Source: a plasmid. From it: a stretch of DNA of 64,000 bases. The stretch lies in NCBI RefSeq assembly GCF_054482595.1, contig NZ_JBTHVH010000004.1; one strand, 5' to 3'. Shown one piece after another: positions 6,001 through 9,000 of the stretch (position 1 is its first letter; each line of letters opens with the position of its first letter). Position numbers: made by a program.

Positions 6001-9000
6001 TTTCAGGGTTGTATCCAAATGAGGCCTGAGTTGCTTTTGTATGCTCAAAAACATACTTAGCTCCTTCACGTACCAAACTTTCATCATTGTAAGGCAATTT
6101 TTTTGGATTGGGGACGAACACTAGGTATTGATTGACCTGGATGTATTCGGCGTCAGAAGAACTGTACAAAGAGCCGAGGCTCATGATCCCAAAACCTTTT
6201 AGACCGCCTGTTACGTAGCCCATCGAACTATTGATGAGATACTTAGAAAGAAAGTTGTCGGCATCCCCTCCAGGAGTAACCTCTTGCTCCTTAAAATTAA
6301 CGTCGAAACCAGCAAACGAATAGGCATTCTTGGCGACAGAATCATTTGCTTTAGCATGCCAGTACTGGCCGTGACTGTACGCATTCAGAGCGGTGCCTGG
6401 CGTAGTGCCGGTGTCACCGGCACAACCCGATAGGGAAAAACCAATGACGACAGAAGAGACCAGAGATACTAAACGTAAAAGTTTCATTTAAAGCCCTTTT
6501 TGTAATGTCTTTTGGAGATGGAACCATTATTCCATAGTCACGCGTTTCACAAACAACCTGATTGCATAAAAAAGGAAAAAAAGTGATTTCCAGTAGAACC
6601 AGCAGTACACAAGAAAAGCGCTTTTATAAAAATGTATAATTATTAAAACGAAGTAATGAGGTTGAAATGGGTAAGCCAACAGAAGAGCAAAGACCTGTTA
6701 TCGAGAATGCTAGCGCAAACAATATGGTGATAGCAGCGCCTGGATCAGGCAAATCATTCACCATGATAGAAGCGGTTATATCGATTCTCAAAAAGTATCC
6801 ATATGCAAGAATCGGGATGGTGACCTTTACTCGCGCTGCAACAAACGCACTTGCAGCAAAGTTACAAAAGCGATTGAGCAAGAAGGATCTTGACCGGGTG
6901 CTGGTGGATACTTTTCACGGACTCGTTAAGAAGCAACTGGACATGATTCGCTGGCCGGGAAAGATGTTGATAGGGCCAGCACAGAGATCTGTCATTCACC
7001 GGGCTTTGAAAGAATCCGGTGTAACGATGAAGTTTGCTGAAGCTGAATTCGTTATTGATGCTATCGGCAGAGAAATGGATACGGATGTGATTTCAGTTCG
7101 GCATAACAGACAACAGATCCATTTATTTAATACCTATCAGGCGTTATGCCAGAAAGACCATGTGGCGGACCTCAATGCTCTTTCAAAATTTGTTGTCGGT
7201 CAAATGCATTCGGGAAAAATGCGCACGTTAGATTTGACACATTTGATAGTAGACGAAGTTCAGGATACTGACTCTATACAATTCTCATGGATAGCATTGC
7301 ATACAAGAGCTGGAGTCTATACGAGTATAGTTGGAGACGATGATCAGGCCATCTACTCCTTCAGATCCTCAGGAGGAGTCAAAATATTTCAACAGTTTGA
7401 AAAACACTTCAGACCTAACATATTTTACTTAAACACATGCTTTAGGTGTGAACCTGAAATTTTAGAGGTGGCCGGAGCACTGATAGGAAAGAATGTTTAC
7501 CGTTATGCCAAAGAGTTACGCTCGGCAAAAAAGGGAGGAGGAAAGGTCACTTTTCGTTCATATGTAGATATGGAGGAACAGATACAGGGTATTTTAAGCC
7601 TTATAAATCAGGATCCACATGGATGGGCAATTCTAAGCCGCAATAATGCTCACTTGGATGAGCTAGAAAGTTTGATCGAACAGCCAGTAATTCGTTACGG
7701 AGGTAAATCATTCTGGGATGAAAAAGAAACAAGCGATGTGTTAAGCCTTATGGCCTTTTTCCGACAATCAAATGCTCCTCGCTTAATGAAGAGAGTATTG
7801 GCATTGTTTGGAGAACAGGAATCAGTTTTGGATGATGTGGCATTGAGTATGAGAGGAAGAAAAGTTACTTTTGGCGACCTTGCCATCCCGGAGGACAGTT
7901 CTCTCGAAACAAAAACATTACATTCAAACTTCGTGCGCTTTACCCAGGAAAGTACTGATAAAGTTGAGATAGCAAAACGTTTCGCCAACCTTACGAAATG
8001 GATGGAATCGTCGTCAATCAAGATGAGGAGTAATAAAGGTACAGCAACCTTAACAAAAATTGCTTTAGACACTTGTAAACAGTGGGCAGAAAAGACTGGT
8101 TGGATGAATATGATCAATCGTGCTGCTGCAATGTCATTAGGCCCTAGGAAGAAGGACGAGGAATACAGCCCAGAGAAAGTAGTCCTATCAACCTTGCATG
8201 GTTCAAAGGGTCTTGAGTGGAATAAAGTAATAATAATGAGTTGTAATGCGGATCAGATACCAAGTAAAAGATCAGTTGGGGAGGAGGCAATAGAAGAAGA
8301 AAGACGTTTGCTTTATGTTGGATTTACGCGTGCAGAAAAGCAACTTTTTGTAATGTGGTATGGTGACCCTTCTTTCTTTTTAAGAGAATGCAGTGAAGAA
8401 AAGATAAAAGAAGCAGCTAATATTCGAATTTCTCCAGTTTATACAGAATAATTCGATATGGGCATTTACTTATGCTTAAAGCTATAGTATAAAAACAATG
8501 AGCTTAAATATCAGCTCCCAAATTTGAGTAACTTTGCTTAAAGTTACTTTCGCGTTAAGCGTTGATTTAGCCGTGAAAAGCGGCCAGCTTAAACAAGCTG
8601 TAAGACACCACCGGCAAAATGTCACCTTTGTCGCTGGTGCACTTCCCATGCCTGAAAAAGGCAATCTGAATTTACCAAACCGTAACTAATTTAGCTCCTC
8701 CTGGAGCTATTTTTGTTGCGTACTTCTAATGCCAGATAGTATAAATCAGGCGGTTCATAGCTTACGGGAGATGAATGACAGGCTTTGCCTTCGTGTTGAA
8801 ACAAAAAATTGTTTCTTCCTTCTTACTATATATAGGTGACCCCAAATGTCTAAAAATAAAGCTCGCAGTAAAGCCCTTCATCAAACCTTTAGTGAAATTA
8901 TTCCAGAGATGGATAAGGCGCTAAACAAACAGCTCTTAGAAGTTCTGATGAAATATACAGAACGTGATAATGAACTGATTGTTATTTTGAATGAGGACGG

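Follow-up and report, generated by a model that had tools for sequence, protein, structure and literature searches.

What a helicase gene standing on its own does on a plasmid is the question raised by a 64,000-nucleotide stretch of plasmid DNA (RefSeq assembly GCF_054482595.1, contig NZ_JBTHVH010000004.1), hereafter called the window. An ATG-started open reading frame (ORF) at positions 6667-8451 of the + strand codes for a protein of 594 amino acids (aa). The initial annotation, made from the sequence alone, described it as a stand-alone UvrD-like helicase of superfamily 1 (SF1) with intact Walker A and DEVQD motifs and no nuclease partner, and left its role open between plasmid maintenance and defence. 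The ORF call, the Pfam matches and the motif positions agree with this description of the enzyme, and Pfam, PADLOC and a fold search revealed neither a fused nuclease nor a nuclease among the neighbours. As to the role, orthology and genomic context largely favour conjugation instead. The gene is trhI, and our preferred reading, to which we give a probability of about one half, is that TrhI would be a plasmid-encoded DNA-processing helicase for conjugation by MOBH relaxases, by analogy with PcrA acting with NicK in ICEBs1.

Identity of the gene and of its enzyme

When positions 5500-9000 were compared with PLSDB by megablast, 1,398 plasmids matched (1,115 of them with at least 99% identity), and in 1,357 of the 1,398 nucleotide matches at least 80% of the queried region was covered. 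The matching ORF is annotated in PLSDB as "trhI: IncHI-type conjugal transfer helicase TrhI", and an identical protein is present in NCBI under the name TrhI. NCBIfam contains no TrhI-specific hidden Markov model (HMM), and the name assigned by PGAP must therefore stem from a BLAST rule. A representative match, pNDM33-1, typed as IncHI2A, MOBH and MPF_F, has the order rsp-trhF-trbC/trhW-trhU-trhN, a lipoprotein gene on the - strand, trhI, three hypothetical genes, and then AAA, DUF3150, VWA and toprim genes. The window protein is 82% identical to TrhI of plasmid R27 (WP_000517883.1) across all 594 aa, and in the R27 record trhI stands at the end of the Tra2 region in the arrangement found in the window (trhW-trhU-trhN, lipoprotein, trhI); the gene order around trhI is thus shared by the window, IncHI2 pNDM33-1, IncHI1 and R27. 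The gene is, practically beyond doubt, trhI: it is orthologous to the trhI of R27, in its IncHI2 form, and closes the Tra2 conjugation region.

The conservation across IncHI plasmids that the initial annotation proposed to look for is therefore extensive, and it includes a syntenic orthologue. Since R27 TrhI is 82% identical and syntenic, and since NCBI gives the protein the same name, what was found is, as far as orthology and naming go, the very orthology to a transfer helicase that the initial annotation had put forward as speaking against its own reading. For TrhI, "characterised" covers naming and genetics only: in the accessible literature, to which the R27 Tra2 mutagenesis papers do not belong, trhI occurs in Tra2 gene listings, with no functional data and no biochemistry. 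trhI is an already known, named and highly conserved gene of the IncHI backbone, so that the gene call is correct and by itself brings little new.

The Pfam families UvrD-helicase (E 5e-33) and UvrD_C (E 4e-31) jointly span aa ~6-565 of TrhI, UvrD_C corresponding to aa 254-565 and UvrD_C_2 to aa 505-563. The SF1 motifs are all intact (Q, I, Ia, II, III, V and VI), without variation among 25 family members that reach down to about 25% identity. Motif I, or Walker A, reads APGSGKS (6736-6756, + strand, aa 24-30; G26, G28 and K29 invariant in the 25 members); motif II, or Walker B, reads VDEVQD (7249-7266, + strand, aa 195-200; D196, E197, Q199 and D200 invariant in the family); motif III, GDDDQAIYSFR (7333-7365, + strand, aa 223-233), does not vary within the family. 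Motifs V (LHGSKGLEW) and VI (EERRLLYVGFTRA) lie in domain 2A (8194-8334, + strand) and belong to the helicase core. Such a conservation of motifs is far beyond chance. The C-terminal ~150 aa, where a nuclease or accessory domain had been suspected, consist of this core, with the two motifs just named, and end in a 29-aa tail; no fused nuclease or accessory domain was detected there by Pfam, in the alignment with UvrD or in the structural model.

By sequence, the nearest solved structures belong to UvrD, Rep and PcrA (E 7e-32 for 3lfu and 2is1). Residues 6-564 of TrhI align to residues 12-614 of the 720 of UvrD; the UvrD C-terminal extension of ~100 aa is missing, and TrhI is ~45 aa shorter inside domains 1B and 2B. 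The AlphaFold2 (AF2) model, obtained with the 25-sequence family alignment, has a pLDDT of 88.8 and a pTM of 0.81. In a Foldseek comparison with the PDB, UvrD, Rep and PcrA came on top over the full length (TM-score 0.66-0.71, E ~1e-30), followed by AdnB, AddA and RecB. The model and this comparison give TrhI the four-subdomain fold 1A/1B/2A/2B.

TrhI shares with E. coli UvrD, Rep and PcrA this fold and all the helicase motifs, and they are its best matches among solved structures. However, it is only 20-24% identical to them, and it is plasmid-borne inside a transfer region. In the NCBIfam models it reaches 178 bits for Rep (equivalog cut-off 951), 173 and 171 bits for the UvrD models (965 and 1144) and 155 bits for PcrA (911). 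Because these scores are far under the cut-offs, TrhI is not a housekeeping helicase copy but a lineage of its own; with the lack of the C-terminal extension, an orthologue of housekeeping UvrD, Rep or PcrA is ruled out. By homology, TrhI is predicted to be a catalytically competent SF1A helicase with 3'-5' polarity.

Association with MOBH conjugation and the weighing of roles

Members of the family were retrieved by tblastn and by a search of 5.8-billion proteins, and 15 family contexts were examined. The family is graded, with proteins of 587-623 aa and identical Pfam make-up ranging from 99% to 27% identity, in Enterobacterales, Vibrionales, Alteromonadales and Burkholderiales. Below ~125 bits the matches turn into 738-aa PcrA-like proteins, and those at or below 124 bits were found in a chromosomal housekeeping neighbourhood, in an integrase island and in an ImuA-ImuB-DnaE2-DinB SOS cluster (one each). 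Members at 27-83% identity were counted inside modules of MOBH relaxases and type IV secretion systems (T4SS) in 15 of 15 contexts, the DNA read at one locus (L012, a Vibrio plasmid) showing no transfer genes. At L012 the helicase gene is followed by genes for a single-stranded DNA-binding protein (SSB), AAA_5, DUF3150, VWA and a Toprim_3 primase-like protein; an rve integrase-family gene upstream, near the end of the record, is probably a transposase of an insertion sequence (IS).

The order TrbC-TraU-TraN, lipoprotein on the - strand and helicase is found in IncHI2, IncHI1, IncHI1B and four intermediate lineages (77-54% identity), as well as in Shewanella pPN3F2_1, Aliivibrio pRVS1-224 and the metagenomic locus L011. 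At L007 the helicase gene starts 2 nt past the end of traU. At L008, L009 and L013 it adjoins the DNA transfer and replication (Dtr) genes, in the order TraI_2 (the MOBH relaxase), type IV coupling protein (T4CP), x and DtrJ, and the pore of L013 is of the VirB type. In pMOL28, which is MOBH and MPF_T, a single strand carries VirB4-TrbJ-...-TraI_2-TraD-...-DUF4400-x-helicase-ParA-ParB. Since the pMOL28 helicase lies in a run with TraI_2 and the pore is MPF_T, the linkage follows the type of relaxase and not the type of pore. The TrhI clade thus appears, from gene content, to track conjugative elements that bear a MOBH relaxase, over at least two pore types.

No relaxase is encoded in the window; the IncHI2 relaxase was taken from a plasmid whose region downstream of trhI is 100% identical to that of the window. 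This MobH/TraI protein of 1,048 aa has a TraI_2 domain only, with no helicase domain, and is encoded in a block with the order MobI-x-MobH-TraD-x-DUF4400. MOBH relaxases in general join TraI_2 to TraI_2_C by a disordered linker and have neither a helicase nor a primase domain; a single one has been characterised biochemically, and no covalent DNA intermediate was seen (PMC6736028, PMC12857230). The known relaxosome factors of IncC are TraI and MobI (bioRxiv 10.1101/2025.04.21.649884). No unwinding activity is described in the MOBH conjugation reviews that we consulted. As a matter of nomenclature, Pfam PF07514 (TraI_2) bears the legacy label "Putative helicase", whereas the domain is actually the HD-type MOBH relaxase (PMC6736028). 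This label can mislead automated helicase searches, as seen at L015 (6854-10000), and one PLSDB record (H119) names the MobH relaxase "DNA helicase".

An SF1A helicase that assists a relaxase is known from ICEBs1, in which conjugation and replication need PcrA, loaded after nicking by NicK. E. coli UvrD is able to replace PcrA in this element, HelP, a small protein with an oligonucleotide/oligosaccharide-binding (OB) fold, gives processivity, and some elements encode discrete PcrA-like helicases, possibly widening their host range (PMC3542172). In the mechanism that we propose by analogy, the MOBH relaxase TraI, with the help of MobI, would nick oriT in the donor. Because TraI has no helicase domain, TrhI would then be loaded at the nick and would unwind the plasmid duplex in the 3'-5' direction along the retained strand, and the transferred strand would be passed to the coupling protein and to the F-type pore. 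With a helicase of its own, a broad-host-range plasmid of more than 200 kb might no longer depend on host UvrD and Rep. Loading at oriT, polarity, a requirement in transfer and any partner of TrhI are inferred. A wider and more tentative proposal is that the TrhI clade may be the dedicated unwinding motor of a large MOBH branch, composed of IncHI, marine Vibrio, Shewanella and Aliivibrio plasmids and pMOL28-like elements, recruited to the nicked oriT by the helicase-less TraI and MobI, with a 125-aa protein encoded two genes downstream of trhI as a HelP-like processivity or ssDNA (single-stranded DNA) factor.

Several points weigh against the proposed role of TrhI in transfer. The abstract of Lawley 2003 is said to list, as the essential Tra2 genes, the mating-pore genes together with trhO and trhZ, with no mention of trhI; TrhI may be auxiliary, or redundant with host UvrD and Rep, rather than essential. 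In IncHI plasmids trhI lies ~100 kb from oriT and the relaxase gene, and it is probably transcribed apart from both the pore genes and the Dtr genes. The DNA-metabolism block directly downstream fits establishment, replication or repair equally well. Within one deep plasmid lineage, co-occurrence partly reflects inherited synteny and does not count as independent evidence, and ~1,300 MOBH plasmids (IncC and similar) are without a TrhI-family member. That TrhI is universal in MOBH plasmids was in fact rejected, IncC having a non-orthologous UvrD-like helicase in its place.

Part of this evidence would suit a helicase for plasmid maintenance or establishment rather than a motor for the transfer strand, a possible explanation that we hold to be the less probable one. 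In donor or transconjugant, such an enzyme would work alongside the neighbouring DNA-metabolism genes, on complementary-strand synthesis, on the clearance of fork and transcription conflicts on a plasmid of more than 200 kb, or on the removal of RecA from ssDNA, damping the SOS response. The block of SSB, AAA_5, DUF3150, VWA/CobT and Toprim_3 genes stands beside the helicase in IncHI1, IncHI2, IncHI1B, Shewanella, Vibrio and metagenomic elements, the pMOL28 helicase gene abuts parA and parB, an OB-fold protein is encoded two genes downstream of trhI, and trhI is transcriptionally separate from the tra operons. In addition, UvrD and PcrA are known anti-recombinases and resolvers of conflicts (PMC7385302). 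However, the helicase stays by tra or Dtr genes where the block is elsewhere or absent, as at the end of traU in L007 and by TraI_2-T4CP-DtrJ in L008, L009 and L013, and the curated name places TrhI in transfer. Moreover, IncHI replicons are theta replicons of the iteron/Rep type, which are not known to need a UvrD-like helicase.

The proposed role in MOBH conjugation has also to be compared with defence against phages or plasmids, in which TrhI would be either GajB-like, with a missing or unrecognised nuclease partner, or a new single-gene system. TrhI and GajB of Gabija are both UvrD-like SF1A helicases of similar length, and the PADLOC models of GajB match TrhI (E 3e-42, 143 bits), but this score is no better than those of the generic Rep, UvrD and PcrA models (178, 173 and 155 bits), and the top 50 Foldseek matches comprise UvrD, Rep, PcrA, AdnB, AddA, RecB and FBH1, with no Gabija structure. 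GajB has GajA as partner (an OLD-family ABC ATPase with a TOPRIM nuclease) and occurs in defence islands; TrhI has neither. No GajA or OLD ATPase-nuclease is adjacent to trhI, its neighbours being the lipoprotein gene and genes of hypothetical proteins, and PADLOC gave no significant match on them. A toprim-domain protein is indeed encoded ~8 kb downstream (16300-17532), but it consists of DUF7146 and Toprim_3, is primase-like and is without ATPase. Large IncHI plasmids do carry defence cargo; trhI, however, belongs to the fixed backbone, keeps strict synteny in all IncHI lineages and is not cargo of a variable island. With a GajB match that is generic, no GajA and a conjugation context, the defence reading was rejected as very improbable. 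Still less credible is a decaying or functionless hitch-hiker kept through linkage to Tra2, although in a few plasmids trhI is disrupted by an IS or frameshifted (H26, H39, H48 and H65). Between IncHI2 and IncHI1, trhI identity at codon positions 1, 2 and 3 is 0.85, 0.91 and 0.45, respectively. The pN is 0.11-0.30, the pS is saturated at 0.83-0.89, and pN/pS is about 0.13-0.36. trhI is under strongly purifying selection: the catalytic motifs are invariant across lineages with saturated synonymous sites, the large majority of the PLSDB matches cover the region as reported above, and the gene persists from Enterobacterales to Burkholderiales. This selection signal effectively refutes the idea of a hitch-hiker.

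The wider proposal of a dedicated unwinding motor, if true, would answer how MOBH systems unwind DNA. What the comparison adds is that certain UvrD-like helicases form a distinct clade, which is linked to MOBH relaxase modules with more than one pore type. IncHI1 and IncHI2 plasmids play a major part in carrying multidrug resistance, that of typhoid strains included, and bear mcr-1, mcr-9 and carbapenemase genes in E. coli, Salmonella and Enterobacter; TrhI is a possible target for conjugation inhibitors.

The transcription unit and its surroundings

Ahead of the ATG at 6667, the + strand carries a -10-like box, TATAAT (6635-6640), and a Shine-Dalgarno sequence, GAGG(T) (6658-6662). TATAAT lies 26 nt before the ATG and the -35 is weak, so the promoter is a putative one; the box, as GTAyAmT, is invariant in six lineages (TrhI identity 54-100%) amid diverged surroundings. 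After the gene, a consensus scan located an intrinsic terminator at 8692-8716 on the + strand, TAGCTCC-tcct-GGAGCTA (hairpin 8692-8709) followed by TTTTTGT. Its stem is kept through compensatory changes, such as AAAACTCC...GGAGTTTT in L019, and double changes are seen in 4 of the 6 pairs of this helix (helix 5). These features suggest that trhI forms a monocistronic unit, running from its own promoter to its own terminator. The transcription unit of its own claimed by the initial annotation is thereby supported, and "alone" would be correct in the sense of transcription. As a location it is not, since trhI closes the Tra2 transfer region.

The lipoprotein gene upstream (5615-6487, - strand, start at 6487) codes for 290 aa with the lipobox LSGC. 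It had been called convergent; in fact it is divergent from trhI and convergent only with trhN (2398-5586, + strand), the last Tra2 mating-pore gene, which codes for a TraN-type mating-pair stabilisation protein (NCBIfam NF011459, 2530 bits). IncHI1, Shewanella, Aliivibrio and L011 likewise have a lipoprotein gene at this spot, with a sequence similarity that fades outside IncHI; Pfam, NCBIfam, PADLOC and PHROG offer no match for the lipoprotein. By position it accompanies traN, it is no helicase partner, and it may be a mating-pore or exclusion accessory. A conserved small-gene partner just upstream of the helicase was considered and rejected, as the divergent lipoproteins resemble one another little outside IncHI and the same-strand upstream ORFs of L006, L008, L009 and L013, where the helicase gene adjoins the relaxase genes, are not detectably related to each other. 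The traN-lipoprotein-trhI junction is also an insertion hotspot. In IncHI1B (L003, 3000-8710) the lipoprotein and helicase genes are separated by IS200/IS605-TnpB copies and by a toxin-antitoxin pair (RelE/Phd), L020 (529-1860) has an IS4 element at the junction, and IncHI1 PST6 plasmids carry a Tn9 composite between trhN and trhI (PMC3139670). In a few IncHI2 plasmids (H26 and H48) trhI itself is split by IS903B or by an IS3-family element.

Downstream of trhI, the stretch without annotated genes extends over 394 bp (8452-8845), close to the 390 bp first reported. It had been regarded as simply non-coding. Two mechanically called ORFs of 51 and 60 aa were rejected as coding in the absence of codon-position periodicity; the stretch contains a conserved structured element. 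Its length is 377-426 bp in every lineage. The identity between HI2 and HI1 is 0.81 over 8511-8716 and 0.92 over 8717-8845, as compared to ~0.45 at synonymous sites of the flanking genes. The + strand RNA of 8495-8720 has a minimum free energy of -75.3 kcal/mol (z = -6.5, against -3.4 for the - strand). In a nine-lineage alignment, RNAalifold gave 50 pairs, 17 of them with double changes. In a local eight-helix structure, 91.6% of cells pair, as compared to 31-48% with the partners slid, and double changes occur in 15 pairs, a number that none of 500 shuffles reached (4.6 ± 1.8). The covariation rests on eight distinct sequences, and the support that it lends is good, not definitive.

Conservation, folding and covariation delimit a structured 3' region at 8570-8720 of the + strand, with helices H1 (8570-8584), H2 (8585-8600), H3 (8606-8639) and H4 (8681-8720), the last of which encloses the terminator H5. 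This region is probably a structured 3' untranslated region of trhI or an independent small RNA with a terminator. Beyond it, 8716-8845 (+ strand) probably contains the promoter and a near-invariant leader of the next operon, and hence the 3' boundary of the trhI unit: a promoter-like site (-35 TTGCGT at 8716-8721, -10 TATAAA at 8740-8745) precedes helices H7 (8753-8776) and H8 (8780-8790), which covary, and in nine of nine lineages, the most distant with a TrhI identity of 49%, the core near 8716-8845 is conserved. Within PLSDB, the element occurs after trhI in 1,396 IncHI1/IncHI2 plasmids, where it is not annotated, and nowhere else. A pattern scan of genome contigs for the conserved core yielded one extra locus only, and an Rfam scan of 5400-9200 gave no match at E <=1. 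A motif of this core, AATGCCAGATA(g/a) at 8728-8748, recurs with 81% identity over 21 nt at 16277-16297, directly upstream of the start of the primase-like toprim gene, where it may act as an operator common to both sites or match by chance.

Two genes downstream of trhI, in this next operon, orf125 (9776-10153, + strand) codes for a 125-aa protein that is "hypothetical" in every record and has no match in Pfam, NCBIfam, PADLOC or PHROG. Its AF2 model (pLDDT 84.3) has the topology b1-b2-b3-a-b4-b5, and Foldseek related it to bacterial SSB and PriB with a probability of 1.0, TM-scores up to 0.8 and 10-20% identity, so that it is predicted to be an OB-fold protein of the SSB/PriB kind. orf125 is found in all IncHI-like lineages, with a conserved C-terminal motif PxPxKGFxxxxF, and is unusually conserved, with a third-position identity between HI1 and HI2 of 0.73 against ~0.45. 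Annotated SSB genes occupy comparable spots near the helicase gene in Shewanella, Aliivibrio, Vibrio, L008 and L009. On the strength of the modelled fold, one may speculate that the orf125 product binds ssDNA or is a HelP-like accessory of TrhI. The structured element and this SSB/PriB-like protein, unannotated in ~1,400 plasmid records, could matter for regulation of the IncHI backbone.

Further downstream, 11249-17532 carries the genes for AAA_5 (a CobS/MoxR-like ATPase), DUF3150, a VWA/CobT-like protein and the primase-like protein with DUF7146 and Toprim_3. The AAA_5-to-toprim block accompanies a TrhI-family helicase in the plasmid groups listed above, the metagenomic elements being MOBH elements and the loci besides the window L002, L003, L004, L008, L012 and L013; it is often joined by SSB and a PD-(D/E)XK protein. 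Every short intergenic spacer of the operon downstream of trhI (9719-9775, 10154-10213, 11192-11248, 12628-12663, 13804-13880, 15894-15950 and 16190-16230) contains a GC-rich hairpin, often with a T-run. In the first three of these spacers the identity between HI1 and HI2 is 0.83-0.93, as compared to 0.65-0.86 in the surrounding coding sequence. The hairpins may be intercistronic attenuators or structures that stabilise or process the mRNA.

Comparison with known systems

The nearest known relative is R27 TrhI of IncHI1, with which the window protein shares, besides the full-length identity of 82% and the position at the end of Tra2, the Pfam make-up and a gap of ~390 bp followed by orf290-orf125. 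The window protein is the IncHI2 allele; its synonymous sites are saturated with respect to IncHI1, and no functional difference is evident.

The helicase of IncC and IncA (R55_170-type, WP_000811656.1) is, like TrhI, a discrete UvrD-family enzyme of MOBH MPF_F plasmids, with transfer genes adjoining. In IncC p135-4 (L027, 317-1828 on the - strand; 95316-96827 of the record), this 502-aa UvrD-like helicase is encoded directly beside traF-traH-traG, and in IncC the gene is annotated R55_170 (PMC10954446). Its neighbours code for a KfrA-like protein, a Tus-like protein and an RNase_T exonuclease. The two helicases are nevertheless not orthologous. BLASTP finds similarity in the motifs only (35 bits), the identity by hhalign is ~21%, the IncC enzyme has GDRHQ where TrhI has GDDDQ, and Pfam UvrD_C matches only its last ~75 positions, most of the stretch of TrhI domain 2B being unmatched. 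A discrete UvrD-like helicase on MOBH plasmids is therefore a recurring theme, played by different genes.

The task proposed for TrhI, unwinding from a nicked oriT, is the one carried out in MOBF systems by F/R1 TraI and R388 TrwC. However, the MOBF helicases are SF1B enzymes (RecD-like, 5'-3'), fused to the relaxase and travelling on the transferred strand, whereas TrhI is a discrete SF1A enzyme encoded far from the relaxase. A relaxase-helicase of the MOBF type is ruled out for TrhI, in which Pfam detects no relaxase domain, the RecD2 model gives just 19.8 bits and the cognate relaxase is a separate protein.

The closest functional parallel would be ICEBs1, with PcrA, NicK and HelP, together with the rolling-circle plasmids and phages whose Rep initiators are served by PcrA, UvrD or Rep. 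Interaction, loading and requirement of TrhI are proposed by analogy with PcrA. The relaxase belongs to MOBT (Rep_trans) in ICEBs1 and to MOBH (HD-type) here, and the ICEBs1 helicase is a housekeeping enzyme of the host, whereas TrhI is encoded by the plasmid. HelP and, by prediction, the orf125 product are small OB-fold proteins encoded by the element; orf125 lies in a separate operon, and its product resembles SSB and PriB by predicted fold. What the two systems would have in common is an SF1A helicase in the service of a nicking enzyme without a helicase domain of its own.

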